A program made the translations under genes and the position numbers. Below, piece by piece: positions 44,285-64,000 of a stretch of DNA of 64,000 nt (its first letter is position 1; each line of letters starts with the position of its first letter). Under the pieces are notes generated by a model that was not told where the DNA came from, ran no database searches, and worked only from the letters and a program-made list of their open reading frames with translations. The stretch comes from Myxococcota bacterium (lineage in GTDB: Bacteria; Myxococcota_A; UBA9160; JAFDDA01): NCBI GenBank assembly GCA_965228475.1, contig OZ245817.1:1536001-1600000 (forward strand). Direction: 5' to 3'.

Positions 44285-44299
44285 CGAGAAGTTCCGCCT

Positions 44300-45034: not shown

Positions 45035-45094
45035 CGCGGGATCATCGTACCCCACTCGCTATCCTCCCGGTCCGATGACGAGGCCCGCTGCGCA

Positions 45095-45838: not shown

Positions 45839-47242
45839 GTGAGTTCCGGAGATCAGTTCGACGTCGTCGTCATCGGCTCCGGGCCGGGGGGCTACGTCTG
45901 CGCCATCCGCGGTGCCCAGCTCGGCATGAAGGTCGCGGTCGTCGAGGCCGATCGGCCCGGCGGGGTCTGCCTGAACTGGGGCTGCATCCCGAGCAAGGCC
46001 CTGCTGACGGGCGCCGAACTCGTCGAGAACCTGCGCAAGCACGGCGAGATGTTCGGCGTGAAGGCAGGCCAGCTCGAACTCGACTACGGCAAGGTCGTCG
46101 AGCACAGCCGGAAGTGCGCGGAGCGCCTCGGCAAGGGCGTCCTCGGCCTGCTCAAGAAGAACCAGATCGAGTTCGTGAAGGGTCGCGGCCGCCTGGCGGG
46201 GCCGAACACGGTCGAGGTCGACGGCGAAACACAGCGCACGCTCTCCGCGGGGCACGTCGTCCTCGCGACGGGCTCCGAGGAGCTCGTCTTCCCGGGCATC
46301 GAGGTCGACGGCGAGTCCGTCCTGACCTCGCGCGAAGCGCTCGAGAGCAAGCGGGTTCCCGAGCGCCTCGTGATCATCGGCGCCGGCGCCGTGGGCGCGG
46401 AGTTCGCCTACGTGTACGCGAACTACGGCTCCGAGGTGACGATCCTCGAGATGGCCGACCAGATGCTCCCGGGGGCGGACCCGGAGATCGCCCAGGCGCT
46501 CCAGCGCGAGTTCCGCCGCAAGAAGATCGACGTCCAGCTCGGCACGCGCTTCGAGCGCGTGAAGAAGGTGAACGGCGGCGTGAAGATCGACGTCACGCGC
46601 GGCGAGGAGTCCGGCGAGATCGAAGCCGATCAGCTGCTCGTGGCGGTGGGGCGCAAGCCGCTCTCGGGCGACCTCGGCCTCGAAGGGGTCGGGATCGAGC
46701 TCGACGAACGCGGCTTCATTCCGACGGGCGCGGAGCTCCGCACTTCGGTGGAGACCGTGCTCGCCATCGGGGACGTCAACGGCGGCGCGCTGCTGGCCCA
46801 CAAGGCCTCGGAGGAGGGCGTCGCGGCGATGGAGTTCCTGGCGGGTGTGGAGCGTCCGCCGCTCGACCATGCCGCGATCCCCGGCTGCATCTACTGCCAG
46901 CCCCAGGTCGCCTGGGTCGGGAAGACCGAGGCCCAGGCCCGCGAGGCCTACGGCGACGACGTCCGCGTGGGCAAGTTCCCGTTCACCGCTTCCGGGAAGG
47001 CCATCGCCTCGGGGCACACGGCGGGGTTCGCGAAGATCATCGCCGAACCGCGCTACAACGAGATCGTCGGGGCCCACATCGTGGGTCACGGCGCGACGGA
47101 TCTCATCGCCGAGATCGGTCTCGCGATGACGCTCGAATCGACCACGTCGGAGATCGCGGCGACGGTCCATGCTCACCCGACGCTGTCCGAGGCCATCCTC
47201 GAGGCGGCGCTCGCGGCCGAAGGCCGCGCGATCAACTTCTAG
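45839..47242 (+). CDS. lpdA: Dihydrolipoyl dehydrogenase (E3)
   Basis: IGSGPGG, GGVCLNWGCIPSK, HAHPTLSEA. Confidence 0.95.
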   Translation: MSSGDQFDVVVIGSGPGGYVCAIRGAQLGMKVAVVEADRPGGVCLNWGCIPSKALLTGAELVENLRKHGEMFGVKAGQLELDYGKVVEHSRKCAERLGKGVLGLLKKNQIEFVKGRGRLAGPNTVEVDGETQRTLSAGHVVLATGSEELVFPGIEVDGESVLTSREALESKRVPERLVIIGAGAVGAEFAYVYANYGSEVTILEMADQMLPGADPEIAQALQREFRRKKIDVQLGTRFERVKKVNGGVKIDVTRGEESGEIEADQLLVAVGRKPLSGDLGLEGVGIELDERGFIPTGAELRTSVETVLAIGDVNGGALLAHKASEEGVAAMEFLAGVERPPLDHAAIPGCIYCQPQVAWVGKTEAQAREAYGDDVRVGKFPFTASGKAIASGHTAGFAKIIAEPRYNEIVGAHIVGHGATDLIAEIGLAMTLESTTSEIAATVHAHPTLSEAILEAALAAEGRAINF

Positions 47243-47260
47243 CGAGGAGTCCACGGATCC

Positions 47261-48517
47261 ATGTCCACTGACGTCGAGCTGCCGGAGCTGGGGGAAAGCG
47301 TCGTCGAGGCCACCATCGGCCAATGGCTGGTGAAGGAGGGCGACTCGGTCGAGATCGACCAGCCGCTGGTCGAGGTGACGACGGACAAGGCCGACGCCGA
47401 GCTGCCGTCGCCGGTGGCGGGCGTGGTCGAGCAGATCCTCGTCTCCGAAGGGGAGACGGTCGCCGTCGGCACCGTGGTCGCGAAGATCGGCGCGGGTGCC
47501 GGCGCTGGCGCCGCGAAGTCCGCGCCGAAGGCCCCGCCCGCGGCAGAGGCCAAGGCTGCGCCCGAGGCGAAGGCGCCCCCGGCCGACGATGGGCCGCGCG
47601 CCACGCCGGTCGCGAAGAAGATGGCGAAGGAGCAGGGCGTCGATCTCGGAAGCGTGGAGGGGACGGGCGTCTCCGGCCGCGTGACCAAGGACGACGTCGC
47701 CAAGCGGGGCGCCGCGCCCGCGCCGCAGCCCACGCCGGCTGCGCCCGCGGCCAAGCGGCCCGCAGCGCCGGCCGCCCCGACGGAGCTCCCGGCCTACATG
47801 ACCTACCGCCTCCAGGAGGGGGACAAGGTCGTTCCGATGTCGCCGCTCCGGCGGATCGTCTCCGAGCACATGGTGCTCTCGAAGCGCACGAGCCCGCACG
47901 TCGGCACGGTCGCCGAGATCGACATGGGCGCGGTCTTCGCCCTGCGCGAAGCCCACAAGAAGGGCTTCAAGGCGAAGAACGGCTACTCGCTTACGTACCT
48001 GCCGTTCATCGTGGCGGCGACGGTGAAGGCGCTCCAGGAGTTCCCGGCGCTGAACGCCTCGGTGGTGGAGGACGCCATCGTCGAGCGGGCCGACATCAAC
48101 ATCGGCGTCGCCGTCGAGACCGAGAAGGGGCTCGTCGTGCCGGTGGTGCGGAACGCCGAGCGGCTCTCGCTCACGGGCCTCGCGGCTTCGATCGAAGACC
48201 TCTCGAGCCGTGCCCGGAACAAGAAGATCTCGCCCGACGAGCTGCGCGGTGGGAGCTTCACGATCTCGAACCCGGGCCGGAAGGGGAATCTCTACGGCTT
48301 CGCGATCATCAACCAGCCCCAGGTCGGCATCCTGCGCATGGGGGAGATGGTGAAGCGGCCCGTCGTGCGGGAATCCGAGGGCAGCGATGCCATCGTGATT
48401 CGCCCGATGATGCACCTGGCCCTGTCCTACGACCACCGGGCCGTGGACGGTTCGCCGGCGAACGGGTTCCTCTTCCGCATCCGCGAGCTGCTCGAGGAAG
48501 CCGACTTCGACCTCTAG
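47261..48517 (+). CDS. 2-oxoacid dehydrogenase E2 (SucB/DlaT-like), one lipoyl domain
   Basis: TDKAD lipoyl-Lys, E3-binding domain ATPVAKKMAKEQGVDL, SYDHRAVDG. Confidence 0.93.
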   Translation: MSTDVELPELGESVVEATIGQWLVKEGDSVEIDQPLVEVTTDKADAELPSPVAGVVEQILVSEGETVAVGTVVAKIGAGAGAGAAKSAPKAPPAAEAKAAPEAKAPPADDGPRATPVAKKMAKEQGVDLGSVEGTGVSGRVTKDDVAKRGAAPAPQPTPAAPAAKRPAAPAAPTELPAYMTYRLQEGDKVVPMSPLRRIVSEHMVLSKRTSPHVGTVAEIDMGAVFALREAHKKGFKAKNGYSLTYLPFIVAATVKALQEFPALNASVVEDAIVERADINIGVAVETEKGLVVPVVRNAERLSLTGLAASIEDLSSRARNKKISPDELRGGSFTISNPGRKGNLYGFAIINQPQVGILRMGEMVKRPVVRESEGSDAIVIRPMMHLALSYDHRAVDGSPANGFLFRIRELLEEADFDL

Positions 48518-48530
48518 GGAGCGCGCCCGC

Positions 48531-49259
48531 ATGGAAACGGCGCCTCGCACGCCGGCCTCCGAGGCCTCATCCGCCGGTACGCCGGCGCTGGCCGTCGAGT
48601 GGCTGGGGACCGTGCCCTACGAACGCGCCCTCACGCTGCAGAAGGAGCGGGTGGCGGCGCGCCGTGCCGGCGCCTGCGGCGATGCGCTGCTGCTGCTCGA
48701 ACACCCGCCCGTCGTCACCCTCGGCCGGAGCACGAAGCCCGGGAGCCTGGTCGATTCACCGGACGGGCTGCGCGCCCGGGGGATCGAGGTCCACGAGGTC
48801 GCGCGCGGGGGTGACGTCACCTGGCACGGGCCGGGGCAGCTCGTCGGCTACCTGGTGCTCGACCTCGACGCCCGGGGCGAGCGCGACGTCCACCGCCATC
48901 TGCGGCGCATCGAGGCGCTCCTGATCGACGCGCTGGCGGCGCTCGGTGTCCCGGGCGATCGGCGCGAGGGGATGACCGGGGTGTTCGTCGCGGGCTCCGG
49001 GCGGCCGCGCAAGATCGCCTCGATCGGTGTCGGGCTGCGGGGCTGGGTCACCTATCACGGCTTCGCGTTGAACGTCGAACTCGGGCCGGACGCCTTCGCC
49101 GGCATCGTTCCCTGTGGGTTGCACGGCGTCGAGATGACGTCGGTCGCCGCCGAACGGGGAGGGGCGCCCGGCTCGGGCGGGGGTCTCGCGGAGCGGGTGC
49201 GGGCCGAAGTCGGCCGGGCGGCGAGGCGTCTGCTCGAAGTGGGGGCGTCCATCGGCTAG
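48531..49259 (+). CDS. lipB: Octanoyltransferase
   Basis: LLEHPPVVTLG, RGGDVTWHGPGQLVGY, KIASIG, HGFALN, IVPCG. Confidence 0.95.
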   Translation: METAPRTPASEASSAGTPALAVEWLGTVPYERALTLQKERVAARRAGACGDALLLLEHPPVVTLGRSTKPGSLVDSPDGLRARGIEVHEVARGGDVTWHGPGQLVGYLVLDLDARGERDVHRHLRRIEALLIDALAALGVPGDRREGMTGVFVAGSGRPRKIASIGVGLRGWVTYHGFALNVELGPDAFAGIVPCGLHGVEMTSVAAERGGAPGSGGGLAERVRAEVGRAARRLLEVGASIG

Positions 49260-49270
49260 CTTGCGCTCCG

Positions 49271-49843
49271 ATGCCCGGCCGCGTCATCAAAGTCGATCGC
49301 CACGAGAAGCTCGGCTGGCTCGAGCGCCTCTACCTGCCCATGATCGTGGCCGGTCTCGCAACGACGGCCCGCCACTTCTTCGCGAACCTTCGCGGCTTCG
49401 CCACCGGGAACCGGACGACCTTCGTCGTTCAGTACCCCGAGGAGCAGGTCGACTTCCCGGATGCCTTCCGCGGGCAGCCGGTCCTGGTCGAACTGCCGAA
49501 TGGCCAGCCGCGCTGCGTCGCCTGCGGCCTGTGCGAGTTCGCCTGCCCGACGGATTGCATCACGATCGTGCCGGGGGAGCTCGAGGGGCACGGGATCGAG
49601 CGCTACCCGGTCCGCTTCGACATCGACATGTCCCGGTGCATGTTCTGCGGGCTCTGCGAGGAGGCCTGCCCCGAGGAGGCGATCGTGATGAGCCGGCGCG
49701 TCGAGCTCGCGACCTTCGACCGCCCGGGCATGATCCACGACAAGAAGGCGCTGCTCGTTCCGGAGGCGGAGCTCGACCGTCGCCTCACCTTCCTCCGGGA
49801 CGAGTACGACCGCGAGCACCAGCCGGCCGAGGGCGACCGCTGA
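49271..49843 (+). CDS. nuoI: NADH-quinone oxidoreductase subunit I
   Basis: QYPEE, CVACGLCEFACP, CMFCGLCEEACP. Confidence 0.93.
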   Translation: MPGRVIKVDRHEKLGWLERLYLPMIVAGLATTARHFFANLRGFATGNRTTFVVQYPEEQVDFPDAFRGQPVLVELPNGQPRCVACGLCEFACPTDCITIVPGELEGHGIERYPVRFDIDMSRCMFCGLCEEACPEEAIVMSRRVELATFDRPGMIHDKKALLVPEAELDRRLTFLRDEYDREHQPAEGDR

Positions 49844-50343
49844 TGGAGGACTTCGGCTTCCTCTCCTTGAGGCGCCTCGTCGAGGCCCACCGCGAGGCGC
49901 TCGAAGCGACCCACGCCCAGCTCGGCGACGCGACCGCGATTGTCGCGGCGGGTCAGGTGGTCGAGGTCCTGCGCTTCCTGCGCGACGACGGCGAGTGCGA
50001 CTTCGACATGCTGATGGATCTCTGCGCCGTCGATCACTTCGGCCCGGAGCTCGGCGAAGCGCCTCGTTTCGAGGTCGTCTACCACCTGTATTCGCTCGGC
50101 AAGAACCATCGCCTGCGCGTGAAGGCGCGGGTTCCCGAGAGCCCGTGCGAGATCGCGACCGTGTCGGACCTCTGGCCCTCGGCGAACTGGATGGAGCGCG
50201 AGGTCTGGGACCTCTACGGAATCCGCTTCACCGGCCATCCGGATCTGCGCCGCCTGCTCCTCTACGAAGAGTTCGACGGCCACCCGCTCCGCAAGGACTA
50301 CCCGAAGACGAAGCGCCAGCCGCTCGTCGGGCCGCAGAACTGA
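49843..50343 (+). CDS. nuoC: NADH-quinone oxidoreductase subunit C
   Basis: RFEVVYHLYS, ANWMEREVWDLYGI, GHPLRKDYP; TGATG overlap. Confidence 0.94.
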   Translation: MEDFGFLSLRRLVEAHREALEATHAQLGDATAIVAAGQVVEVLRFLRDDGECDFDMLMDLCAVDHFGPELGEAPRFEVVYHLYSLGKNHRLRVKARVPESPCEIATVSDLWPSANWMEREVWDLYGIRFTGHPDLRRLLLYEEFDGHPLRKDYPKTKRQPLVGPQN

Positions 50344-51590
50344 TGGCGAGCGAACCCGTCCGCTTCACCGAGCGCGCGCGCGAAGGCCCCGAGGACGACC
50401 TCGAGCGCGATCTCCACACCGAACACCAGATCCTGAACATGGGCCCGTCGCACCCAGCCACCCACGGCACGGTCAAGTTCATGGTGGAGCTCGACGGCGA
50501 GACGGTGATCGACATCGACGTGCAGGTTGGGTACCTGCACCGCGGCTTCGAGAAGGAGTGCGAATCCGGGAGCTGGTACCAGGCGATTCCCTACACGGAC
50601 CGGCTGAACTACAACTCCTCGATCCTGGCGAACCTCGGCTACTGCCTGGCGGTCGAGAAGCTCCTCGGAATCGAGACCCCCGAGCGCTGCCAGTGGCTGC
50701 GCGTGCTCTCGAGCGAGCTTTCGCGGGTCGCCGACCACCTGACGCGCTGCGGGGCGGCCTGCCTCGAGATGATGGCCATGACGCCCTTCATCTACGGGAT
50801 CGAGGCGCGCGAGCGGGTCTGGGATCTGCTCGAGATGCTGTGCGGGGCCCGGCTGACGTCGAACTACATCCGCATCGGCGGCGTGAAGCACGGCATGCCG
50901 AAGGACTTCCCGCGCATCGCGCGCAGCAACATCGAGAAGGTTCGTGAGCTGCTGGCCGACTTCGACGGCGTGGTCACGCGCAACCGGATCTTCGTCGACC
51001 GGCTGAAGAACACGGGCACGATCTCGAAGGAGGACTGCATCCGCTACGCCGTGACGGGCCCGCTCCTGCGCGCCGCCGGCGTGCCGCTCGACGTCCGCAA
51101 GGACGAGCCCTACCTGACCTACGACCAGATCGACTTCGACGTGCCGATCGGCGAAGTGGGCGACAACTACGATCGCTACCTCGTGTGTGTCGAGGAGATG
51201 CACCAGAGCCTGCGCATCGTGGAGCAATGCCTCGAGCGCCTGGAGGACCTGGGCGACGGCCCGGTCAACGTCGACGATCCGCGCGTGCGCTGGCCGGCGA
51301 AGGGCCGCGTCTTCAATCACATGGAAGAGCTGATCCAGCAGTTCAAGTCCGTGACGGAGGGGCCGCGAGTGCCGGCGGGGGAGGGCTATCTCGCCATCGA
51401 GTCCGCGAACGGCGAACTCGGCTTCTATCTCGTTTCCGACGGTTCCGCCGTCCCGAAGAAGGTCCGCTGCCGCCCGCCGAGCCTGATCAACCTGGCGCCG
51501 CTGCCCTTGATGGTTCGGGGCGGGCTGCTCGCCGACATCATTCCGACCTTCGACTTCGTGAACATGATCGGCGGGGAGTGCGACCGCTGA
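50343..51590 (+). CDS. nuoD: NADH-quinone oxidoreductase subunit D
   Basis: NMGPSHPATHG, GYLHRGFEK, DRLNY, GECDR C-terminus; no Ni-binding CxxC. Confidence 0.94.
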   Translation: MASEPVRFTERAREGPEDDLERDLHTEHQILNMGPSHPATHGTVKFMVELDGETVIDIDVQVGYLHRGFEKECESGSWYQAIPYTDRLNYNSSILANLGYCLAVEKLLGIETPERCQWLRVLSSELSRVADHLTRCGAACLEMMAMTPFIYGIEARERVWDLLEMLCGARLTSNYIRIGGVKHGMPKDFPRIARSNIEKVRELLADFDGVVTRNRIFVDRLKNTGTISKEDCIRYAVTGPLLRAAGVPLDVRKDEPYLTYDQIDFDVPIGEVGDNYDRYLVCVEEMHQSLRIVEQCLERLEDLGDGPVNVDDPRVRWPAKGRVFNHMEELIQQFKSVTEGPRVPAGEGYLAIESANGELGFYLVSDGSAVPKKVRCRPPSLINLAPLPLMVRGGLLADIIPTFDFVNMIGGECDR

Positions 51591-52309: not shown

Positions 52310-52684
52310 TCAGCCGGCGACCTCGCGGCCGAAGGCGAGCCCGGCGCCCACCCCGGCCAGGCCCCCCGCCACGCTTGCGAACACGTAGAGCGCCGCCGGA
52401 ACCCACGCGCCCCGCGTGAGCAGGTCCATCGTCTCGAGGCCGAACGCGGAGAACGTGGTGAAGCCACCGAGCAGGCCGGTGATGACGAAGGCGCGCAGGG
52501 CCGGGGGCGTGTGTTCGAGGCTCAGCCAGGCCGAGACCAGGCCGATCGCGATACAGCCGATCCAATTGACCGCGAGCGTGCCCCAGGGAAAGCCCTCGCC
52601 GGCCTGGGTCAGGAAGGCCCGCGCGACCGCAAAACGAGCGAGCGCACCCAGTCCCCCTCCGACGAACACCGCCAACCAATGCAT
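52310..52684 (-). CDS. crcB: Fluoride channel Fluc/CrcB
   Basis: GGGLGALARF, FPWGTLAVN, GLLGGFTTFSAF. Confidence 0.95.
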   Translation of the reverse strand: MHWLAVFVGGGLGALARFAVARAFLTQAGEGFPWGTLAVNWIGCIAIGLVSAWLSLEHTPPALRAFVITGLLGGFTTFSAFGLETMDLLTRGAWVPAALYVFASVAGGLAGVGAGLAFGREVAG

Positions 52685-52785: not shown

Positions 52786-55700
52786 ATGTCGAACCCGAGC
52801 ACTTCGCCTCCGCTGTTCTCGAGCCCGTCGCGGCGCCGGACCCTGGCCCTCGCGGAGGAGCTGGTGAACGTCCCGCTGACGACCGTCGTGGCGCCGGGGG
52901 GCAGCGGGAAGACGACGCTCCTCTCGGCCTGGCGCGCGGCCCTGGCCGCGAATACGCGCCAGGTCTGGCTCGATGCTTCGACGATCCACGGCGACGTCGG
53001 AACCTTCGTCGACGATCTGCTCCACGGCCTGCAGGCCGCGCTGCGGGGCGCCCCGTTCGGCCGGGAGACGACGCGGATCCTCTCGAACCTGACCGGGGGC
53101 GAGGACGACTGGCGGATCCTGCACCGCGCCTTCCTGCGCGACTGGCTCGGCGTCGAGGGGGAGACCGTGGTCTTCCTCGACAACTTCCACAACGTCCCGG
53201 CGGGATCCCCCGCCGACCGGTGGGTTTCCGAGATGCTGCGGAGCCAGCCGGCCAACCTGCACTGGGTCGTGTCGTCGCGCGGCACGCTCCCCGGCGCGGC
53301 GGTTCGCCTGGCCGCGGGCGGGCTCGTTCACGAGGTCGGCTTCGACGACCTGAACCTGCGCTTCGAAGAAGCGAAGGCGCTGCTCGAATCGCGCGGGATC
53401 GAGGCGGACGACGCGCTCGTGACGACGCTCCTCGGGCGAACCGAGGGCTGGGTGACCGGGCTGCAGCTCGCGGCCCGCGTGCTCCAGCGCGTGGACCCCG
53501 ACGAGCGCCGCGCCTACGCCGAGCGGATCGGCCGGGAGCGGGACCTCTTCCACTACATCGCGGCCGAGCTGCTGGCCGGCGAGAGCGAGGAGCAGATCCA
53601 GCTCCTCGAGCGCGCCGCGGTCCTCGGGCGCGCATCGCCGGAGACGCTCGGCCAGCTCCTGGATCCTCCCGGGGGCCTCGACCGGATCGAGCACGCGATC
53701 GATCACGGACTCCTGCTCGGCGACGGCAACGAGGTCTGGCCCCATCAGCTCTGGCAGGAGTTCCTGCGCGAACGGCTGAAGGCCCGGCTCTCTCCGCAAG
53801 AGCACCGCGCGCTGCACGGGCGCGCCGCGCGGCTGTTGGCCGAGCAGGGGAGGGTCGAAGCGGCCCTCGAGGCCTATCGGGAATCCGAAGACTGGCAGTC
53901 GATCGCGTTCCTTCTCCACGAGGTCGGCCACGAATGGCTCGATCGTGGTCGCGCCCGGGGCGTCCAGCGCTGGCTCGAGGCCCTTCCCGGAGAGGTTCGG
54001 GAGTCGGAGCCGCGACTGCTCGAGATGCAGGGGCTGCTCCTTCTCGAAGCCGACCCGAAGAGCGCAACCCGCTACCTCGAACAGGCGGCTCGCGCCTTCT
54101 CGGAGAGCGGAGACTTGAAGAGCGAGGGCGGTGCCCTCGGCGCACTGACCTACCTCGGCATCACGCGCCTCGACCTCGCGGCGGCGAGACGCTCGTTGCT
54201 GCGGGGCTTCAAGCCCTCCCGGCTGATTTCGGACTCCGGGAAACGGGCGGAGGCCTTCGTCGGCCTCGCGGGTTTTGCCGCGCTCCGCGGCCGCTTCGGT
54301 CGCTCGCTGAAGCTCTCCGAGCGCGCGCTGCGGGCTCCTCTGCCGCCCCTGACGCGCTGGTTCAATCTCCTCAACCTGGGTCTGCTCTACTCCCTCGCGG
54401 GAGACTTCGACCGGGGCCGCACGCTGCTCGACGAAGGCCTCGGCGACCGTGCCGTCTCCCGGCGCGCGTTCGTCTACAACTCGTTGCTGATCGTGAGGGC
54501 GCTGCTCCTCTCGCGCTCCGGAGACCACGCCGCGGCCCGCCGCGACATCGAGGAAGCCCGCCGAGGGATCGAGGACTTTCGCTTCCGGAGCTTCCAGCCG
54601 CCCTGGGCGATGGTGGCCGCCGACGCGCACGCCCTGCGCGGCGATCGCGATGAAAGCGAGCGCGCCTACGCCGACTTCCTCGCCGCCATCGCGAAGGCCG
54701 ACGCCGTTCCGCTCGAGGCCGTGGCCCGGGGCCAGCGCGCGGTGCGTTGCCTCGGCTGGGGGGACGCCGACGGTGCGCGGGCCGAAGCCGAGCGCTGTGC
54801 GCAGCTGCACGAGCGGGGCATCCCGGAGGGCAAGATCGCCTTCCCGTGGTGGATCGCCGTCTCCCTCTGGGTGCTCGGCCGCACCGGCGATGCGAAATCC
54901 GCCTGGGCCCGGCTGGCTCCCTTCCGCCGCGACCTCCGGCCGTCGGGCCTTCCTTTGCTCGAGGCGATGATCGGTCTCACCACCGCCGAGCTCGCACACC
55001 GCGCGGGGGAGGACGCGGAAGCGGCTTCCCTGGCCCGCGACGCCTGGAAGCGGGCGGAGCGCGACGGGGTCCAGCTCGACCCGATGATCTCTCCGCTCGT
55101 GTTGCCCTGGGCCACGGCGGAGGCCTTCCGCCAGGGTGTGGCCGAGGACTTCGCATTCGATGCGCTTCGCCGTCTGTGCCCGGCGGCCGTGCCCGGCGTC
55201 CTCGCGACGCTCGCGAAGGATCGCAACACCTCGGTGCGGATGCGCGCCGTCGAGTGCATGGCGGAGTTCGGCGGCCGCGCGCTGCACGGCCCCCTCGAGC
55301 GCGCGACGCGGGACCGGAACGCCAAGGTGCGCGCGGCCGCCGAGCGTGCGCTGCCGGCCCTCGACCTGCGGCCCGACTTCGCCGTGCGGATCCGCTGCCT
55401 CGGCCGCCTCGTCGTCGAGCGAGACGGAGAGGCCCTTCCGGATTCCGCGTTCCGAGGGAACATGGGCCAGCGCCTGCTCGGGCGCCTGCTCGCGAGCGAA
55501 GGCAGGCCCCTTTCGCGGGACGTCCTCCAGACGGATCTCTGGCCGGAGGCCGACGAGGCCGCGGGAAAGAACAACCTCCGCGTCTCTCTTTCCCGGCTCT
55601 CCGATGCCCTCGACCCCGAGCGTCTGCCCGGTTCGCCCGCCTGGTTCCTTCAGACGGGGGGTGTCGGGGTGGCGCTCGACCTCGATCGTCTGGCGTCCTG

Positions 55701-56154
55701 GGACGTCGGCGAGTTCCGCGAGGCCGCTCGCCGGGCCGAGGCCGCGCGTCGCGAGGGAAACATGGAGGAGGCTCTGTCGGCGTACGCCGTCGCGGTCGAT
55801 CGCTACGAGGGTCCGTTCCTCCCCGAAGCGGCCTACGAAGAGTGGTCGCAGCCGGTGCGCCGTCGGCTCGAGGACGAGTTCCGGGGCGTGGCCGAGCGCT
55901 ACGGCGAGATGCTGCTCGACGGCGCGCGCCGGGAAGAGGCCCTGAAGCTCGCCGACCGTCTGCTCGACGACGATCCGGCGGACGAGAACGCGTGGCTCCT
56001 GCGCATGCGCGTCCAGCTCATGCAGGGCGATCGCGTGGCCGCGAGCCGAACCTACGACCAGGCCCGGGAAGCGGTGCGGGCCGCGCTCGACGTCGAGCCC
56101 GGCGAGGCCCTGCGCGATCTGGCGGCCCGGGTCCGGGGCGTCGCTCCGGAGTGA
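52786..56154 (+). CDS. Large ATP-binding transcriptional activator: MalT-like NTPase + TPR + HEAT + C-terminal SARP wHTH/BTAD
   Basis: APGGSGKTT, FLDNFH, RTEGWVTGLQL; HEAT-like DRNTSVRMRA/DRNAKVRAAA; CLGRL...DLWPE...NLRVSLSRL; YEGPFL...EEW...DPADE...LDVEP. Confidence 0.9.
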   Translation: MSNPSTSPPLFSSPSRRRTLALAEELVNVPLTTVVAPGGSGKTTLLSAWRAALAANTRQVWLDASTIHGDVGTFVDDLLHGLQAALRGAPFGRETTRILSNLTGGEDDWRILHRAFLRDWLGVEGETVVFLDNFHNVPAGSPADRWVSEMLRSQPANLHWVVSSRGTLPGAAVRLAAGGLVHEVGFDDLNLRFEEAKALLESRGIEADDALVTTLLGRTEGWVTGLQLAARVLQRVDPDERRAYAERIGRERDLFHYIAAELLAGESEEQIQLLERAAVLGRASPETLGQLLDPPGGLDRIEHAIDHGLLLGDGNEVWPHQLWQEFLRERLKARLSPQEHRALHGRAARLLAEQGRVEAALEAYRESEDWQSIAFLLHEVGHEWLDRGRARGVQRWLEALPGEVRESEPRLLEMQGLLLLEADPKSATRYLEQAARAFSESGDLKSEGGALGALTYLGITRLDLAAARRSLLRGFKPSRLISDSGKRAEAFVGLAGFAALRGRFGRSLKLSERALRAPLPPLTRWFNLLNLGLLYSLAGDFDRGRTLLDEGLGDRAVSRRAFVYNSLLIVRALLLSRSGDHAAARRDIEEARRGIEDFRFRSFQPPWAMVAADAHALRGDRDESERAYADFLAAIAKADAVPLEAVARGQRAVRCLGWGDADGARAEAERCAQLHERGIPEGKIAFPWWIAVSLWVLGRTGDAKSAWARLAPFRRDLRPSGLPLLEAMIGLTTAELAHRAGEDAEAASLARDAWKRAERDGVQLDPMISPLVLPWATAEAFRQGVAEDFAFDALRRLCPAAVPGVLATLAKDRNTSVRMRAVECMAEFGGRALHGPLERATRDRNAKVRAAAERALPALDLRPDFAVRIRCLGRLVVERDGEALPDSAFRGNMGQRLLGRLLASEGRPLSRDVLQTDLWPEADEAAGKNNLRVSLSRLSDALDPERLPGSPAWFLQTGGVGVALDLDRLASWDVGEFREAARRAEAARREGNMEEALSAYAVAVDRYEGPFLPEAAYEEWSQPVRRRLEDEFRGVAERYGEMLLDGARREEALKLADRLLDDDPADENAWLLRMRVQLMQGDRVAASRTYDQAREAVRAALDVEPGEALRDLAARVRGVAPE

Positions 56155-56228
56155 TGCGGCGCCGGGCGCCGGCGCGCGGGCGAGGCCGCAACTGATCGAA
56201 ACGGTTGAGGTTTCCCGCTCCGCGCCGC

Positions 56229-56261
56229 GGTAACGCCGGGGTAATGCCCGGGGCCGATCGT
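56229..56261 (+). promoter_or_regulatory. SARP-type direct repeats GTAACGC-N4-GTAATGC plus -10 region
   Basis: GGTAACGCC (56229-37) and GGTAATGCC (56240-48), 11-bp period; GCCGATCGT at 56253-61; GTG at 56268. Confidence 0.65.
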
Positions 56262-56267
56262 GTTCCC

Positions 56268-56495
56268 GTGGCAAACGAGAAGAAGAACGCATTCGTCGTC
56301 TGGCTCGACCCCGGCGCGGAACCCGGCCAGGCCGATCGCTACCAGGGCCGGATCGAGCACGTCCCGACCTCGACGCGCGAGACCTTCTCGGGCAAGGAGG
56401 AGCTCCTCGCCTTCATCGAGCGTCACTTCGGCGAGTCCGGGAGCACGCCGTCCGTCGAGCCGAGCTCGGACGATGGTTCGGAGCGGTCGCCGTGA
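56268..56495 (+). CDS. Small uncharacterised protein (75 aa)
   Basis: AFVVWL...YQGRIEHVPT...FSGKEELLAFI; stop overlaps the next GTG (GTGA). Confidence 0.75.
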   Translation: MANEKKNAFVVWLDPGAEPGQADRYQGRIEHVPTSTRETFSGKEELLAFIERHFGESGSTPSVEPSSDDGSERSP

Positions 56496-59400
56496 CGGTT
56501 CGCCTCGCCTTCCTGCTTCTGGCCCTGGGGCTCGTCCCCGCGGTGGGCTGCACGCCGATGTCCTCGGAAGGCATCGGCGTCGAGGTCCCTTCGTGGACGC
56601 TCGAGTCGGCGACCGGTGAGGATGGCGCCTTCGAGGTGGTGTACCGCGCGCGCTGCCAGGCCGTCGGGCGCGAGGTCCTGACCTCGGCGGTCCTGCTGCT
56701 TGCCGCGGGCGAGGCGACGGTCGTCGACGGACTGGCCCAGTGCGGGCCGATCGAGGCCGGGGGCGAGGTCGACGCGGGCGATGGCATCACGCTCCTCCAG
56801 TCCTCGCCAGACGCGCTCGACCCCGCGGACTTCGACTTCGCCACGGTGGTGGTCGGACGCGACGACGAACTTCCGTCGACGCGACAGACCTCGACGATCG
56901 AACAGTTCACCTACCCGGTGCAGCTCGCGAGCACCGCCGACGAGGCGATCGTGCTCTCCGCCATGGCCATGAGCGCGGCTCCGGCGACGCGCGTCGTCGT
57001 GGGCCTGACGGTCGCCGAGACACCGCCCGGCGGCAGCGTCGGGACCGCGGGCATCCTGTCGCTGCAGCACGATCTTGCGGTCCCCTTCGACCCGGCCGCG
57101 ATCCACTGGTCGCTCCGCAGCGAGACGGCCCAGGACCTCGCCGTGGGCGTCACCACGAGCCTCGATGGCGTCGGGCACCCGCTCGGTGGCGTCCGCGTCG
57201 AAGAGCAGGGCCCGGAGGGCGATGCCGTCCGCACCACCGAGGCGAGCACCGGCTTCGTGAGCCTCGCCCAGAGCGCGGGCGACTTCCGTTGGCGGTTCTC
57301 GAAGGAGGGGCATCTGCCGGTGTGGCGGCGCCTCACGCTGGCCGCGGGTGAGGTCGCCGCGGTGCATGCGCCCTGGCTCGCCCGGCAGGATTCGGAGCGC
57401 TACCCGGTCACCGTCTTGAACGGCGGCGTCGTCGGAGGCCCCGCCGCTCGCACGACCGTGACCTTCGGTGCCGGCACCGTTTCGGCGAACCTCGAGGCGG
57501 TCCTCACGGAGCTCGACGGCCAGGCGCTGCCCGCCGCGCTGCCGATCGGCTGGAGCCCGCTGAACGCCTTCTGGCTGGAGCTCGCGGAAGACCCGAGCGA
57601 GGCCGCGACCGGAGCGCTGCAGCTCCTCGACGCTCTCGAGCCCGGCGAGGCCGGTGCCTTCGCGCGGTTCGCTCCCGACGCTTTCGCCTGGCAGGTGCTC
57701 GAGGTGGTCGGCGGCGACGGCGGGGATGCGGTCGACGTGGCCGTGCCCGGAGCCGGCGCCTACGTCTTCGCGGTCGCGGACGTCCTGCCCGCGGCGCCGC
57801 CGGCGCCCGAAGTCGGGCTGCCGCTCGGCCCGGCCGCGGCAACCTTCCCCGAGCCCGGCGAACTCGAGGGCGAGGGCGCCGTCGATCCGGCCGTCCGCGC
57901 GGCGAGCCTCCTGCCGGAGCACGTCACCGGCCTCGGGCGCGTGGAGATCTCGCACGAGGACCCGCTCGCCAGCGGGCTCCTGCTGCGGGGCGAGGTCGAC
58001 GAGCACTACCGCTTCTTCGACGGAGAGGAGCGGCGAACGCCGCGCTATCCGATCTCGGTCGTCGCCTACCAGCGCCCGGGAGACCGGGATCCGCGCACGC
58101 TCGAAGCGACCTTCCCCCTGCGACCGACGGCCCTGTTCGGGCCGACCGAGCTGGCCGAGGCCACGCTCCAGGTCGAGATCCTTCCGCCCTCGGCCTTCGC
58201 CGGCGCCGTCCTCGGCGACAGCGGCGGCCTGGTGGTCTCGGCGCAGGCGGCGGCGCTGGTCCCGGCGGACGTCCTCGCCGGCGACACGCCCGTCGAGCTG
58301 CGCGACCTCGAAGCGGGGGCCTTCGGCCCGGACGCCGTCCTCGCCTTCGATCTCTCGGTCGGGGGCGTCGTATCCGGGCAGCGCTTCGAATGGTTGCTCG
58401 GCCGCGGCGAGCCCGGCGCCCACTACGTCCTGGCGGCGGCGGTCTCGCGCTTCGGGCTCTCCGGGCTCGAGCCCCTCGAGCGCTACCGGGCCGACGAGAC
58501 GGGCCTGATCGTTCGCGACGAGCCGGTGAGCGGGGGTCTCCCCGGCGTTCGCGGGCCGGGCCGGCTCGTGCTCGTGCGGGTCGACGGGCCGCAGGCGATC
58601 GTCGAGGGCATCGTGCGCGACACCGACGGGATCGCGCGCCCGGGCCTGGCCGTGCAGATCGCGGGCACGCCCTGGCTGACCTTCTCGGACGCCACGGGGG
58701 GTTACCAGCTCGTCGCGGGAATCGGGCCGCGCGAGGTCGTCGTGATCGACCCGGGGAACGGAGATCTCGGAACCGCGGGGTTCGAAGTGCCCGCGTCGCT
58801 CGCTGCCGTGGGCGTCGACGCCGCAACGGCCCCGACCGGGCCGCGCATCGTCGAGCGCATCCCCGCCGACGGGGAGCGGGGCGTCGACGCCGTGACCCCG
58901 GTGGTCGTCCGCTTCTCGGAAGCGGTCGCGCGGGCGAGCTTCGGAACGGACGGGCTGGTCCTGCTCGACGGCAGCGGGACCCCCGTCGACGGAAGCCTCT
59001 CGCTGAACCTCGACGGCAACGAGGCGACCTTCCTGCCCGTTTCACCCCTGGTCTACGGCAGCGTCCACACGCTCGTCGTCAGCGGCGCGCTGCAGGACGA
59101 GATCGGTCTGCCGATCGAAGGCGACGAGGCCTTCCGCACCTCCACCTTCACCATCCAGGCGGCACCGACTCGCGGCGAGGGCGCCCAGCTCGCGATCTAC
59201 GAGCCCGGCTCGACCCTCGGGTACGCGGCCTGCGACGCCGCGGGCGTCGCCGGGATGGAGTTCGTCCCAGAGACGTTCATCTGCGTCCTCGGGAGTCAGG
59301 GCGCCGCGGACCCGGAGGTTCCGGTCGTCCTCGCGAACGACAGCACGGGCGCCACCGCGACCACGGACTCGAGCCCCGACGGCAGCTTCGCCGGCGTGCT

Positions 59401-62400
59401 CGAGGCGACGGTCGACGACTTCGTCTCGGCCACCTTCGTCAACGGCAACGGAACGCGCATCCGCATTCCGGTGCAGCGCCAGCTCTTCGACGACGGGAGC
59501 GTGGCGCTCTACGCCGCCGGCGGGATCCTCGAAGCCGAGAACGAAGAAGCCGGTGTCGTGCAGGTGCTGGTGGAGCCGAACGCGATCCCGAACAAGTCCA
59601 AGTTCAAGCTCGACCTCTTCGACGACTTCGCGCAGCTCCTCGAGGCCGTCGAGAACACGCCGCCCGAGGACGGGCAGCTCCTCGGTGGCTTCGAGATCGA
59701 GTTCTCCGGAGACCCTCTCGAGGAGGCCGCCGACTTCACGTTCCCCGTCGATCCGGCCGACCTCGACCTCGAGCCGGGTCAGACCGTCGAAGACCGCTCC
59801 TTCATTCTCGCCGAACCGATCGAAGTGGACGGCACGCTCGTCTACCGGACGGTCGACGCCATGAAGTGGGATCCGGAGACACAGACCCTGTTCACGTCTT
59901 CGCCCCCCTTCGATGCGTTCCTCGGGTTCGGCCGCTTCCTGCTGACCCCGCTCATGCTCCCCGTCTTCAAGGACAACGAGCTCACCATGACGGGCCGCGT
60001 GGTGGCGGCCCCCGAGGAGATCGCGAACGAGCTCACGGAGGAGCAGATCCGCTTCGCGCTGCCGCCGATCCGGCCGGTTCCGGGCGCCATCGTGACGGCG
60101 GACATCGGCGGCTTCTCCCAGAACAACGCGGGCCTTCGCGCCGGTGCGATCGTCGCGCGGGCGAACTCTCGGGGCTTCTTCGCCTTGCGGGTTCCCTTCA
60201 ACCCCTTCACGGGCGATCCCGTCTTCCTGCGCGCCCAGAGTCCCCTCTACCCGGGCCGCCGCGCGACGGACGGCTCGGTCGCCCCCACGATCTTCAACGG
60301 GATCCCCGAGAAGGTTCGGAACCTCGTCTTCAGCATGCCCGAGAACGCGAGCGCGGACGGGTTCGCACCGCTCGTGACCGCGAGCCCCGAGACCAGCGTC
60401 CTCCCGGTGGGCGAGGACGTCACGGTCTACATGACCATCCAGGACGATCGCAGCGCGCCCTACCTGAACGGCATCGCCCTCGATCCGACGCGATCGATTT
60501 CGCTGGTTCCGGGCCAGGCGCTCGGCCCGGTGCTGGTGAGTCAGGGGGCGAGCACCCCGATCACGCCCACGTCCATCGGAGCGGAGGTCACCGTCCAGGT
60601 CGAACGCTCCTCCCTGGTGACCCTGCTCGCCACCGCGGTCGACCAGGCGGGCAACGAGCGCGTGGTTCCCTTCCGGCTGCGATTCGGCGTGCCGCCCGAA
60701 GCGCCCCCGACCGATCTTCAGCCCTACGACGACGACGATGCGACGCCGCCGCGCGTGGTCTCGGTCACGCCGGGCCGGGGCGTCATGCTCGCGGCGCTCG
60801 ACGAGATCGTGATCCGCTTCAGCGAGGCGGTGAGCGAGAGCATCGAAACGGACTCGGTGAGCCTCCAGCCTTCGGGGCTCTCGATCATCGATCCGATCGT
60901 CGAGCTCTCGGACGACCACCTCACCGCCGTCATCTATCCGTCCGGCCTTCCGCCCGGGACCGAGGTCACCCTCGCCGTCGACGCCCAGGATCTCGCGGGC
61001 AACGCCATGGACACGTTCTCGACGAGCTTCCGCACGGCGCCTTCGGAGACCGCCCAGCTCCAGGGCGTCGACTGGCCCGTGGCGACGGTGGTGAGCGGCG
61101 CCTTCGCGTACACCCTCGATCGCGGAGTGGGGGACGGCGCCGAAGGCATCGTCGTCCACGATCTGGGCAATCTTTCCCAGAACCCGACGCCGGCGGGCTT
61201 CTTCGGGCTGCCGGAAGCCCCGCGCACCCTGACGCTGCTCACCCCGTGGAGCTTCAAGACCGGCCCGACCGAGCCGACCCGCACCGCGTCGCTCCTGGTC
61301 GCGACCGGCGGGGTCCTCGGCGAGGGCAACGCGGGGCAGTGGATGTGGGTGGTCGACGTCTCGGACCCGGCATCGCCCCAGCGGGTCGCGGGCGGGCTCG
61401 TGAGCATCGACGTCGCATCGGCGGTGACGAACGTGCGCTGGTCGGCGCCGCGCGTGGCCCTCGGGCTGAACACGCCGGAAGGCGGGCGGATCCTGCACAT
61501 CGATCTGCAGGCCTTCATCCTCGGTTCGAACGGGACGCACCAGACCGGGTCGCCGAGCCCCGGCAACGACGACAACGCCGACGGCGACTACGTCGACTCC
61601 GGAGACACCCTGCCGACCCCCCAGTTCGGGACGCTCTGGGGCCACGACTTCACCACGGCGGCCGCGTTCAAGCGCATCTTCCGGGACTTCGACCTGGCCT
61701 TCGGCGGACTCCTCGTCGCGAGCGCGATGCCCACCCGGCCCGAGACGAGCTCGGGCGGTCCGGGGGGGCCGCTCCCCGAGTTGAAGGGCCGGCTCCAGAT
61801 CCACAGCTTCAACGGACTGCCCGTCGGGAACGGCGACGGTGCAGAGGGCGGGCTCGAGTTCGACGAGGACCCGTGGCGGGTCCGCCTCGATCCGAGCTTC
61901 CCCGTCACCGACGACACCGGCCTGCGCATCGTCCCGGTCGCCCTCGTGAGCTACGGCGCGAAGATCGGCGTGGTCGAACTGACCGACCCCTTCGAGCCCG
62001 AACTCCTGCATGAGGTGTTCCTCGGGCCCGACGTCTCGAAGATCTTCTCCATCGAACGCGCGGACCCGGACACCTACGCCGTCGGGACCCAGGAAGGTGT
62101 CTTCCTGCTCGACCGCGAAGAGCTCGGGGAGGAGGCGGACAGCACGACGCTCCCGCACCACGCCGTGCAGGCCCGGCTGCCCACGCCCTTCGGTTCGGGG
62201 CGCACCTTCGGTGCGTCGTCCACCGCCGTGGCCGTGCCGGGGGGTCAGGTCGCGCGCCGTCCCCCGGCGATCGCCGTGGCGCGCTCCATCGGGGAGTCGG
62301 TCCCGAGCCGGACCGACGTGCTCGGGCTCGCCCTGGAGGAGCGCCGTGCCTTCGCCGAGAACCTCGTGGAGACGTCGCTGCTCTTCCCGGCCTCGCTCAC

Positions 62401-64000
62401 ACCGAGCGATCCCGCGGCACCCGGCGCGCTGTCGGATCCGCCTTCGCCTGCCAACCACTACTACGCGATCGTCCGAGCGAGTGGCACGCTCGGCGAGGAG
62501 CTCTCGGTGGCCGTCGAGGCGCTCGGCGTCGATGGAAAGCTGCTCTCCCCGCGCGGGACGAGCTTCCCGCCGGTCATGCTCTCGGACGAGACCTTCGCGC
62601 TCGGCCTCTCGGACTTCCAGAACAGCGGCACCGGGGCGCTCCGCGCCTCGCGTCTCTCTTCGGATCCGACCGACCCGCTCTACGACCTCTACGTCTCGGA
62701 CCCGTTCCTGATTCTCCGCGAGGCGCTCTCGGACGAACAGTTCGAAGCCCTCGAGCTGGGCGGGGAGCGCTGGCGGCAGGTGGTCTGGAGCGGCGACGCG
62801 ATGCGCTTCAGCCTGGACGCCTTCCAGGCGGAAGCCGGAGACACATGGCTCGAATCCCTGCAAAGCGACATCCAGAGCGCCGAGTACATTCCGGGTCTCT
62901 CGCGGCGCTACGCGGCGTTCTGTGGGCAGTACGTCGATTCGCCGAACCCGCTGGCCGAACGCTCGTCTCCCCACGTGGCCGGCGTGAACACGCAATCCGG
63001 CGAGTTCCGGCACGCGATCGCCGACGCCCAGCTCCAGAGTCACTCCGTACCCCTCGGACTGACGCGTACCTACGAGAGCCGCTCCCTCTACGTCGGCCCC
63101 TTCGGCCGCGGATGGGACAGCAACGTCCACGCTCGCCTGTGTTCCCTGCCCACGACCGGATTGCCGAGCGAGTTCACCCTGCCGCTCACCGTGGCCGGGG
63201 ACCCCGCCGTCGACCGGATCGCCCGGCCGGGAGACGTGCTGGTGATCGACGGCGCGGGCTCGGTGCAGCTCTACCCGCGCATCGACTCGCTGCACGGGAA
63301 CGTCGACCAGCGCCCGGCCTACGAGGCGGATCCCGCCATCGCGACCTTCGGCTGGACCGGAAAGATCGGCTCCTACTACGCCTCGCCCCCCGGCCACTTC
63401 GAAACGCTGATGCGCTTCACCGACGGAAGCTTCGTCCTCCTCCAGACCAACGGCGAGCGCATCCACTTCGGCGCCGACGGCCGCATCGACCAGGTGATCG
63501 GGACCTTCCCGAGCGCACGGACGCGCTACCGCTATCGCGCGGACGGAAGGCTCGACGAGGTCGAGAACGACCGCGGGCAGAAGATCGAGTTCGGCTACTA
63601 CGAGCGCAGCACGAGCCCGAACTTCATGCTGCTCGACCGCCCCTACGGCGAGGTTTCGCAGATCGGCCTGATCGCCCGGGTGAAGACGCCCTGGGACGAC
63701 ACGGACTACCACTACGACGAGCTGAACAACCTCGTCGAGGTGGATTCCGACGAGGGTACGAGCCGCTTCTACGGCTACGACGACGAGGCGCCCTACCAGA
63801 TGACGTCGATCCGGCACGGGTCGGCGGACGGCGAGGCCGTGCAGACCATCGGCTACGGCGACGGCGGTCTCGTCGAGACGGTGAGCCTGCTCGGGGAGAC
63901 GACGACCTTCTCCGGCGCCGCCGCGACGGCGCGCGACCGGCTCGAGGGCGGCGACGGGACCACGAGCTTCACCGTCGGGGACGGCGAGCCCCAGCAGATC
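56492..64000 (+). CDS. Giant (>2500 aa, 3'-truncated) surface lipoprotein with Ig-like, beta-propeller, DUF6531-like and YD/RHS modules
   Basis: Frame open from GTG 56492 to window end; AVG-C20 lipobox; PRIVERIPADG...VVVRFSEAV and PPRVVSVTP...IVIRFSEAV...DLAGN; VVDVSDPASP; GVNTQSG...LTRTYES...GPFGRGW; YRYRADGRL, YHYDELNNL. Confidence 0.9.
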   Translation, partial: MTVRLAFLLLALGLVPAVGCTPMSSEGIGVEVPSWTLESATGEDGAFEVVYRARCQAVGREVLTSAVLLLAAGEATVVDGLAQCGPIEAGGEVDAGDGITLLQSSPDALDPADFDFATVVVGRDDELPSTRQTSTIEQFTYPVQLASTADEAIVLSAMAMSAAPATRVVVGLTVAETPPGGSVGTAGILSLQHDLAVPFDPAAIHWSLRSETAQDLAVGVTTSLDGVGHPLGGVRVEEQGPEGDAVRTTEASTGFVSLAQSAGDFRWRFSKEGHLPVWRRLTLAAGEVAAVHAPWLARQDSERYPVTVLNGGVVGGPAARTTVTFGAGTVSANLEAVLTELDGQALPAALPIGWSPLNAFWLELAEDPSEAATGALQLLDALEPGEAGAFARFAPDAFAWQVLEVVGGDGGDAVDVAVPGAGAYVFAVADVLPAAPPAPEVGLPLGPAAATFPEPGELEGEGAVDPAVRAASLLPEHVTGLGRVEISHEDPLASGLLLRGEVDEHYRFFDGEERRTPRYPISVVAYQRPGDRDPRTLEATFPLRPTALFGPTELAEATLQVEILPPSAFAGAVLGDSGGLVVSAQAAALVPADVLAGDTPVELRDLEAGAFGPDAVLAFDLSVGGVVSGQRFEWLLGRGEPGAHYVLAAAVSRFGLSGLEPLERYRADETGLIVRDEPVSGGLPGVRGPGRLVLVRVDGPQAIVEGIVRDTDGIARPGLAVQIAGTPWLTFSDATGGYQLVAGIGPREVVVIDPGNGDLGTAGFEVPASLAAVGVDAATAPTGPRIVERIPADGERGVDAVTPVVVRFSEAVARASFGTDGLVLLDGSGTPVDGSLSLNLDGNEATFLPVSPLVYGSVHTLVVSGALQDEIGLPIEGDEAFRTSTFTIQAAPTRGEGAQLAIYEPGSTLGYAACDAAGVAGMEFVPETFICVLGSQGAADPEVPVVLANDSTGATATTDSSPDGSFAGVLEATVDDFVSATFVNGNGTRIRIPVQRQLFDDGSVALYAAGGILEAENEEAGVVQVLVEPNAIPNKSKFKLDLFDDFAQLLEAVENTPPEDGQLLGGFEIEFSGDPLEEAADFTFPVDPADLDLEPGQTVEDRSFILAEPIEVDGTLVYRTVDAMKWDPETQTLFTSSPPFDAFLGFGRFLLTPLMLPVFKDNELTMTGRVVAAPEEIANELTEEQIRFALPPIRPVPGAIVTADIGGFSQNNAGLRAGAIVARANSRGFFALRVPFNPFTGDPVFLRAQSPLYPGRRATDGSVAPTIFNGIPEKVRNLVFSMPENASADGFAPLVTASPETSVLPVGEDVTVYMTIQDDRSAPYLNGIALDPTRSISLVPGQALGPVLVSQGASTPITPTSIGAEVTVQVERSSLVTLLATAVDQAGNERVVPFRLRFGVPPEAPPTDLQPYDDDDATPPRVVSVTPGRGVMLAALDEIVIRFSEAVSESIETDSVSLQPSGLSIIDPIVELSDDHLTAVIYPSGLPPGTEVTLAVDAQDLAGNAMDTFSTSFRTAPSETAQLQGVDWPVATVVSGAFAYTLDRGVGDGAEGIVVHDLGNLSQNPTPAGFFGLPEAPRTLTLLTPWSFKTGPTEPTRTASLLVATGGVLGEGNAGQWMWVVDVSDPASPQRVAGGLVSIDVASAVTNVRWSAPRVALGLNTPEGGRILHIDLQAFILGSNGTHQTGSPSPGNDDNADGDYVDSGDTLPTPQFGTLWGHDFTTAAAFKRIFRDFDLAFGGLLVASAMPTRPETSSGGPGGPLPELKGRLQIHSFNGLPVGNGDGAEGGLEFDEDPWRVRLDPSFPVTDDTGLRIVPVALVSYGAKIGVVELTDPFEPELLHEVFLGPDVSKIFSIERADPDTYAVGTQEGVFLLDREELGEEADSTTLPHHAVQARLPTPFGSGRTFGASSTAVAVPGGQVARRPPAIAVARSIGESVPSRTDVLGLALEERRAFAENLVETSLLFPASLTPSDPAAPGALSDPPSPANHYYAIVRASGTLGEELSVAVEALGVDGKLLSPRGTSFPPVMLSDETFALGLSDFQNSGTGALRASRLSSDPTDPLYDLYVSDPFLILREALSDEQFEALELGGERWRQVVWSGDAMRFSLDAFQAEAGDTWLESLQSDIQSAEYIPGLSRRYAAFCGQYVDSPNPLAERSSPHVAGVNTQSGEFRHAIADAQLQSHSVPLGLTRTYESRSLYVGPFGRGWDSNVHARLCSLPTTGLPSEFTLPLTVAGDPAVDRIARPGDVLVIDGAGSVQLYPRIDSLHGNVDQRPAYEADPAIATFGWTGKIGSYYASPPGHFETLMRFTDGSFVLLQTNGERIHFGADGRIDQVIGTFPSARTRYRYRADGRLDEVENDRGQKIEFGYYERSTSPNFMLLDRPYGEVSQIGLIARVKTPWDDTDYHYDELNNLVEVDSDEGTSRFYGYDDEAPYQMTSIRHGSADGEAVQTIGYGDGGLVETVSLLGETTTFSGAAATARDRLEGGDGTTSFTVGDGEPQQI

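Follow-up and report, generated by a model that had tools for sequence, protein, structure and literature searches.

A 29-kb accessory block links an RHS giant and its conserved partner to a MalT-SARP-type regulator cassette in a Myxococcota genome

A window of 64,000 nucleotides from a Myxococcota bacterium (contig OZ245817.1, positions 1,536,001 to 1,600,000) runs into a 29-kb block that lies between crcB and a tRNA-Cys gene and encodes a regulator (REG), a small protein (SM), two giant proteins (G1 and G2) and a glycine-rich protein (G3). Based on this block and its relatives, we lean toward the view that it is an inducible, Sec-exported and surface-displayed polymorphic-toxin apparatus independent of type VI secretion (T6SS), with G2 as its scaffold. 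An earlier note on this DNA, made from its letters alone, had described four co-directional elements in tight order, namely REG, a repeat promoter, SM and G1, and all four are present in that order, with the last two genes coupled through a GTGA overlap. The unit is larger than first seen and consists of two modules, REG-promoter-SM and G1-G2.

The block and its two giant proteins

Coordinates are those of the window, and past 64000 the numbering is continued (position on the single 5.0-Mb contig of the window's genome, G000:C1, minus 1,536,000). G1 (56492..68269, forward strand, in the window to 64000) encodes 3,925 residues, and its GTG start at 56492 overlaps the SM stop ending at 56495. 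G2 (68262-80189, forward strand; 3,975 residues), the second exported giant, overlaps the G1 stop by 8 nt, and G3 (80207-81514, forward strand; 435 residues) follows; both have a signal-peptide-like start. The flanks are crcB on the left (52310..52684, reverse strand) and tRNA-Cys on the right (81594-81667), which are separated by only 54-304 nt in four of the five relatives examined (G002, G097, G102 and G169), and therefore the 29 kb between them represent an insertion, as one unit. The block ends carry no attachment-site repeats of 12 bp or longer and its GC content (71.7%) is close to that of the genome (70.5%), so that there is no sign of recent integration. In tblastn searches within the genome REG, SM, G2 and G3 had no paralogue and G1 had one weak YD match elsewhere. 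In a genome of the same genus (G001, 89% complete), SM, G2 and REG were all without a match.

G1 begins with a hydrophobic leader and a lipobox-like Cys20 (read by eye) that is invariant in all five aligned orthologues, while several verrucomicrobial orthologues lack an obvious lipobox. Its domains comprise Ig-like/Big_5, carboxypeptidase-regulatory-like, DUF6531, RHS_repeat, YD shell and Rhs core (PF05593, E 2e-17; TIGR01643, E 3e-20; TIGR03696), with about 2,150 residues of surface-type domains preceding the shell, and a profile built on the five orthologues finds Rhs shells of known structure (7q97, E 5e-40). In the core, Asp3530 and Asp3553 align with TccC3 and are invariant in the five orthologues, and a dyad-like pattern occurs in all 42 RHS cores found before G2 homologues (see below), which suggests an aspartyl autoprotease pair and a predicted cleavage site before the C-terminal tip. 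Neither Pfam nor NCBIfam matched a PAAR, VgrG or WXG domain in G1, and no VgrG gene (TIGR03361) was found in G000 (single contig, 96% complete), G036, G097 or G102, the fifth genome, G169, giving partial hits below the cut-off. The early reading of G1 as a lipid-anchored RHS giant, exported by a signal-peptide or lipoprotein route and not by a T6SS, is thus supported. Three other RHS cores of the same contig (at 398295, 1026787 and 4632242) also follow hydrophobic leaders and a Cys.

G2 opens with an unannotated region of about 620 residues, which shares 57-65% identity with the closest group across phyla and is conserved far better than the G1 shell, as expected of a functional core. CarboxypepD_reg, Big_5, Big_7 and TSP3 repeats and four PVVARPVGA repeats were recognized in G2, and no TcA family was matched in Pfam or NCBIfam; G3 had no match in either database. 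Across phyla G2 stands directly after G1, often with overlapping stop and start codons.

We found the G2 N-terminal region in 14 of 201 genomes of the class and 8 of 401 of the phylum, at 14 loci of the genome collection (mostly titled Verrucomicrobiota, 55-62% identity) and at 70 metagenome loci. Three loci titled Bifidobacterium sp. or Akkermansia muciniphila (L010, L015 and L020) carry a Limisphaerales-like G2 at 61-69% GC, and these titles may result from faulty binning. In homology-anchored gene maps, 77 of 95 loci had 1.5 kb or more before G2, and there the preceding gene was an RHS gene in 42, had no detected RHS core in 34 (some on truncated contigs) and was no long frame in one; therefore, the G1-G2 pair does not need the cage. 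Many of the loci without a core share N-terminal segments of G1. On the complete chromosome G548 the G1-G2 pair occurs three times; a single one of these pairs has an RHS core, and a different one is followed by a G3-like gene.

All five genes are linked in four genomes of three families and in two arrangements. Besides G000, G169 has REG-SM-G1-G2 with G3 on another contig, G097 has SM-G1-G2-G3 followed by a convergent REG, and G036 has the latter order split over three contigs. SM had no match in any of the five genomes tested behind the genome-collection G1-G2 loci. Therefore, the G1-G2 pair is the core, and recruitment of the regulator cassette took place in one lineage. The triad of regulator, small gene and giant proposed from the window is therefore a genuine linkage in these four genomes and not the unit, as the cassette mostly drives other cargo and the constant partner of the RHS giant is G2.

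Several neighbouring genes were observed at other loci. In another class of the phylum, a divergent ATPase-type gene, by eye a STAND regulator, precedes G1 (L178:2588-6058, G389), possibly an independent recruitment of a STAND-type switch. An exported-looking gene of about 215-235 residues lies just before G1 at three verrucomicrobial loci (L161, L174 and L176, in G548, G550 and G551), and two or more of these three genes end in a PEP-CTERM-like tail. A related-looking secreted-type gene of about 335 residues stands between the G1-like gene and G2 at seven of the loci without a detected RHS core (L098, L100, L115, L116, L117, L120 and L136). In the window itself, 43007-51590 reads by eye as housekeeping genes unrelated to the finding (ferrochelatase, dihydrolipoamide dehydrogenase, E2 acyltransferase, LipB and NADH dehydrogenase-like subunits).

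Exchangeable tips and adjacent immunity genes

Past the window edge the expected RHS core and tip are both present, although the second aspartate motif reads DRDG instead of the anticipated DPxG. The tip (residues 3557-3925, 369 residues) is helical and basic, with a net charge of +11 against -275 for the rest of G1, and is shared with G102 (32% identity) and the locus L114. We weakly infer that it could be membrane-active, which is quite possible but short of likely.

The 42 tips fall into 18 BLASTP-linked groups, a number that slightly exceeds the true one, since BLASTP missed the G000-G102 link seen by alignment and the tip of G097 carries a frameshift. That of G036 matches the ADP-ribosyltransferase TreX (8s2m, E 4e-8) and is of the R-S-E type. 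TreX is an interbacterial, antibacterial enzyme with its own immunity protein (PMC11606950). The G169 tip resembles a papain-fold deamidase below the cut-off (E 1e-3), and the L110 tip has a weak DUF4347 match. The largest tip family, which does not include the tip of the window, occupies 17 of the 42 loci and conserves K-x6-KT, GDxD and QHG (aligned from L008, L010, L013, L014, L071, L072, L075, L076, L084, L086, L091, L094, L102 and L124); these motifs are, we presume, like those of ExoY/EF-type (class II) nucleotidyl cyclases, and profile searches of PDB and Pfam with this family returned nothing relevant.

An immunity gene had been expected after the toxin tip; instead, the tip runs straight into G2, and no immunity gene directly follows the G1 of the window, distant loci not having been searched. 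The distance from the G1 stop to the mature G2 start is at most 190 nt in 35 of the 42 RHS loci, or 31 of 37 after dereplication, the six exceptions being three long leaders in the frame of G2, one tip in two pieces and two candidate-immunity open reading frames (ORFs). Candidates for immunity genes between tip and G2 are thus confined to two of the 37 distinct loci, G097 (133 residues) and L121 (about 235 residues). In G097 the ORF follows the frameshifted G1 tip (L022:18063-19338). Where toxin systems lack a neighbouring immunity gene, distant organisms have been proposed as their targets (PMC3482391).

The regulator cassette and its promoter

REG (52786..56154, forward strand) is a 1,122-residue protein when read from the ATG at 52786, the longest frame opening at GTG 52738. 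It is a MalT-clade STAND NTPase with the domain order NTPase-TPR-HEAT-winged helix-turn-helix (wHTH)-BTAD, carrying the Walker A motif APGGSGKT and the Walker B motif VVFLDN. Residues 31-455 match the MalT family NF003420 at E 5e-33, with 114 bits and so below the cut-off of 537, the BTAD match (residues 989-1133) reaches E 2e-19, and the OmpR-type wHTH (Trans_reg_C, residues 912-961) is below the cut-off at E 0.005; AAA_16, TPR and HEAT matches are weak, and no LuxR/GerE helix-turn-helix was matched. The initial description of a SARP-type activator with a MalT-like STAND region is supported by these matches. REG relatives occur in 21 of 225 genomes of the class, mostly beside other cargo, and the two best full-length ones sit inside the RHS loci of G097 and G169. 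SM accompanies 9 of 20 REG-homologue loci (seven of the nine already found from the SM side) and is therefore a frequent but not obligatory partner of REG. The MalT-SARP regulator class is common but unstudied.

SM (56268..56495, forward strand; 75 residues) had been called an orphan, which did not hold, as 2,745 relatives at E<=0.001 were found among 50%-identity representatives. The small frame before the giant does exist and ends at 56495 as described, and its start is the GTG at 56268 and not the ATG at 56244; the latter, tried as a start, lies inside the promoter repeat, and the homologues align from the GTG. The family, aligned from 116 of the 150 matches listed plus three close sequences (the match P0008, a repetitive protein, was dropped as spurious), shows the motif FVVWL..GRVEHV..F.S.EELL.F, and none of the 119 aligned members has a credible Pfam match. 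The predicted fold consists of three strands and a helix (pLDDT 84). A fold search with it gave no hit at Z>=5, the best being 2yzt (Z 4.3, root-mean-square deviation 2.8, 47 aligned), a likeness that reflects a common dsRBD/HicB-like arrangement and points to no function. Foldseek with the SM model gave no match at E<=0.001, and in the ESM Atlas the leads for SM and for the N-terminus of G2 all stayed under 0.9 and were either hypothetical or of CARDB/DUF11 type. Predicted complexes of SM with the STAND or the wHTH-BTAD part of REG scored 0.00, which carries no weight either way.

The SM profile found 26 places in 20 of the 225 class genomes, at 12 of which a REG relative lies within 1.5 kb, while by eye several others adjoin a wHTH-AAA regulator and the cargo is varied, often exported or PEP-CTERM-like. 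SM is the lead gene of a regulator cassette, and perhaps a feedback or coupling factor. A role as immunity protein was considered and rejected, because SM is conserved whatever the tip and is mostly found without RHS genes.

The predicted activator box (56229..56245, forward strand) is GGTAAC-N5-GGTAAT with an 11-bp period, covering the -35 position, and only these two copies, GGTAAC at 56229-56234 and GGTAAT at 56240-56245, are present. A predicted -10-like hexamer, GATCGT (56256..56261, forward strand; pattern NAnnnT), lies 10 nt past the second repeat and 6 nt before the SM GTG. A general repeat search of the window did not list this repeat as a family, so that the window alone cannot tell it from chance, and a sigma-70 consensus scan gave no sites. 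We therefore took, for each of the 26 SM places, the best pair of GGWAAC-like hexamers at the 11-bp period. Twelve loci, including 9 of the 12 REG-adjacent ones, had at most three mismatches, and the other 14 were set aside. Within these twelve, NAnnnT occurs exactly 10 nt past the second repeat in 11, against none or one at spacers of 5-9 and 11-15, the hexamer having been chosen by eye from loci that include that of the window. With a matrix from 10 other loci, the site at 56229 scores highest (22.5 bits, next 20.2) when both strands of the 5.0-Mb genome are compared, the training rows of the matrix being loci with the -10 pattern and the relatives not being independent. G097 and G036, with REG at the far end of the operon, retain a degenerate box at the same spacing before SM. 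Therefore, the claimed phased-repeat promoter of a SARP-type activator gained support in a genome-wide comparison, REG probably binds the GGTAAC/GGTAAT pair, and the box and -10 geometry points to a leaderless-type start of SM at GTG 56268, where the homologues begin. At four other SM loci (L055, L059, L060 and L066) a GCAATC/GAAATC/GAATC repeat has the 11-bp period without the 10-nt spacing to a -10; two of them, L055 and L059, lie next to wHTH-AAA regulators, which hints at a second class of operator.

Functional readings and relation to known systems

Among known systems, bacterial teneurin-like proteins (TLPs) share with G1 the export by signal peptide, adhesion-type N-terminal domains, a YD shell, a polymorphic C-terminal tip, in TLPs a toxin, and no obvious injection machine, and those of Myxococcota are Sec/SPII lipoproteins (PMC13018210), a signal type to which the Cys20 leader of G1, read by eye, corresponds. 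The similarity of G1 to the TLP structures 9ifo and 9pt5 is best in the YD shell; TEN_NHL had no match by sequence in the G000 genome, although the pre-shell region of G1 may hold a divergent propeller of the TLP superfold (FN-plug, NHL propeller and YD shell). In contrast to TLPs, the G1-type tips are about 180-390 residues instead of about 15 kDa, the adjacent immunity gene is mostly missing where at TLPs it is almost always present, and the second giant partner, G2, does not figure in the available part of the TLP description (PMC13018210). T6SS Rhs toxins (the TreX carrier, Tse5, Tse15 and RhsA) have the RHS cage, the core aspartate pair and exchangeable tips, the TreX-like R-S-E ADP-ribosyltransferase among them; however, G1 bears a signal peptide and no PAAR or VgrG domain, G000 has no VgrG gene, and the immunity gene is usually missing. 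In Tc/ABC toxins (TcA with TcB-TcC), an RHS container with variable cargo, whose TccC3 core aligns with that of G1, is likewise encoded beside a large partner, but G2 is rich in Ig/transthyretin repeats and matches no TcA family, and G1 and G2 both have signal-like N-termini.

On the regulatory side, the conserved promoter geometry, together with the top genome-wide rank of the site, resembles what has been published for AfsR at afsS of Streptomyces coelicolor, where a STAND activator with wHTH-BTAD acts on direct repeats 8 nt upstream of the -10 that overlap the -35, and a small protein gene is the first target (PMC11301090), the latter being a likeness of gene position. Unlike AfsR, whose SARP module is N-terminal, REG has the MalT-type STAND region first and the SARP module last, its box is GGWAAC with a 10-nt spacer, and its cargo is an operon of exported proteins and not secondary metabolism. 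REG also resembles E. coli MalT and the LAL regulators in its N-terminal STAND region, which matches NF003420, but with a score far below the cut-off and with a wHTH-BTAD output instead of a LuxR helix-turn-helix. By analogy, the system would work like a TLP or a Sec-exported RHS toxin under an AfsR-like switch. Within the scope of titles and abstracts, beyond which lie supplements and most subscription papers, the literature held no description of the G1-G2 pair or the SM family, and the accessible portion of a giant-gene preprint (10.1101/2023.11.21.568195) made no mention of the G1-G2 system.

Based on these findings, we propose the following course for the toxin apparatus. First, a signal would activate the MalT-type switch REG, whose wHTH-BTAD part very probably binds GGTAAC/GGTAAT over the -35 and, like AfsR at afsS, brings in RNA polymerase. 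One transcript, probably leaderless, would then run from SM through the coupled SM-G1-G2-G3 genes, the coupling itself being evident in the gene overlaps. G1 would be exported by Sec and lipidated at Cys20, and its YD cage would fold round the tip, which is probably cut at the aspartate pair. G2, the constant partner and a long Ig/transthyretin-repeat scaffold, may plausibly present G1 at the surface or anchor it to the target, and the tip would be an exchangeable effector released on a non-kin target. An adjacent immunity gene would usually be dispensable because the tip would be unfolded on its way out of the cytoplasm and then remain in its cage until a non-kin target is touched.

Several observations weigh against this proposal. 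For the tip of the window, searches gave neither a credible Pfam match nor a PDB match, and longer proteins held no homologue of it. Its model from a two-sequence alignment reached a pLDDT of 36.5 and was not used for a fold search, and even the most hydrophobic stretch of the tip scores marginally (1.6). Of 26 metagenome tips, 24 lack a Pfam match at E<=0.02. No cage was detected before G2 at the 34 loci noted above, the G1-G2-G3 locus of G102 comes with neither REG nor SM found, and 11 of the 20 REG-homologue loci show no SM. In TLP chimeras the shell apparently gave the producer no protection, and an immunity gene follows almost all TLP genes (PMC13018210).

The strongest rival, which we rate as less probable but serious, holds that G1 and G2 form an inducible adhesive surface structure or coat in which the RHS cage is optional and the window tip is a recognition or structural element. 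The 34 loci of 77 without a core, many still sharing N-terminal segments of G1, and the three pairs of G548 speak for it, as do the TSP3 repeats of G2, weakly like those of the CglD/MtsD adhesion proteins (far below the cut-off), the unmatched window tip and the PEP-CTERM-like exported proteins that the cassette precedes elsewhere. An adhesive element would, however, fit poorly with a conserved cage whose tips change between many unrelated families, among them a TreX-like ADP-ribosyltransferase and a papain-fold tip with catalytic motifs, and with the dyad-like pattern in every one of the 42 cores.

It is rather improbable that G1 is an ordinary signal-peptide RHS polymorphic toxin with which related bacteria compete, that its immunity genes are encoded at other genomic sites, and that G2 is an adhesin under shared regulation that acts independently of G1. 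RHS toxins exported by Sec are already known as a class (PMC3482391), and two of the 37 distinct loci do hold a candidate immunity ORF; against an independent adhesin stand the position of G2 directly after G1 across phyla, often with overlapping stop and start codons, and its N-terminal region, which at 57-65% identity within the close group is conserved far better than the shell. That REG is placed here by accident and does not control the giants is very improbable, since, although its relatives mostly adjoin other cargo and verrucomicrobial G1-G2 loci show no SM, its closest relatives sit in RHS loci, the linkage survives rearrangement, the only top-scoring box of the genome lies directly before SM-G1, and the block was inserted as one unit.

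Beyond the toxin apparatus that we favor, we tentatively suggest, as a rather doubtful extension, that G1-G2 could be a contact-dependent toxin delivery machine of a new class, separate from T6SS, two-partner secretion and Tc toxins, in which the N-terminal region of G2 docks or triggers the Sec-exported cage and no immunity gene is needed, as the toxin is never free in producer or kin. Such a system might be a weapon against prey or grazers across uncultured Myxococcota-like bacteria and Verrucomicrobiota, wired here to a ligand-sensing STAND switch with the SM family as regulator cofactors.

The discussion of PMC13018210 treats as open by what means an RHS cage that lacks an injection machine gets to its target and into it, and the constant partner of about 4,000 residues, G2, is a concrete candidate for the missing RHS delivery machinery. 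Enzyme-like tips with no immunity gene next to them call into question the customary pairing of toxin and immunity, and the loci supply up to 18 mostly unannotated tip families. Additionally, the cassette provides a precise predicted operator (two hexamers, a 10-nt spacer and a -10) for regulators of the MalT-SARP class, and it connects STAND regulators with a small-protein family of about 2,700 clusters that lacks annotation. The interchangeable toxin-like tip, usually with no immunity gene beside it, points to a mode of toxin display at the bacterial surface that is as yet undescribed.

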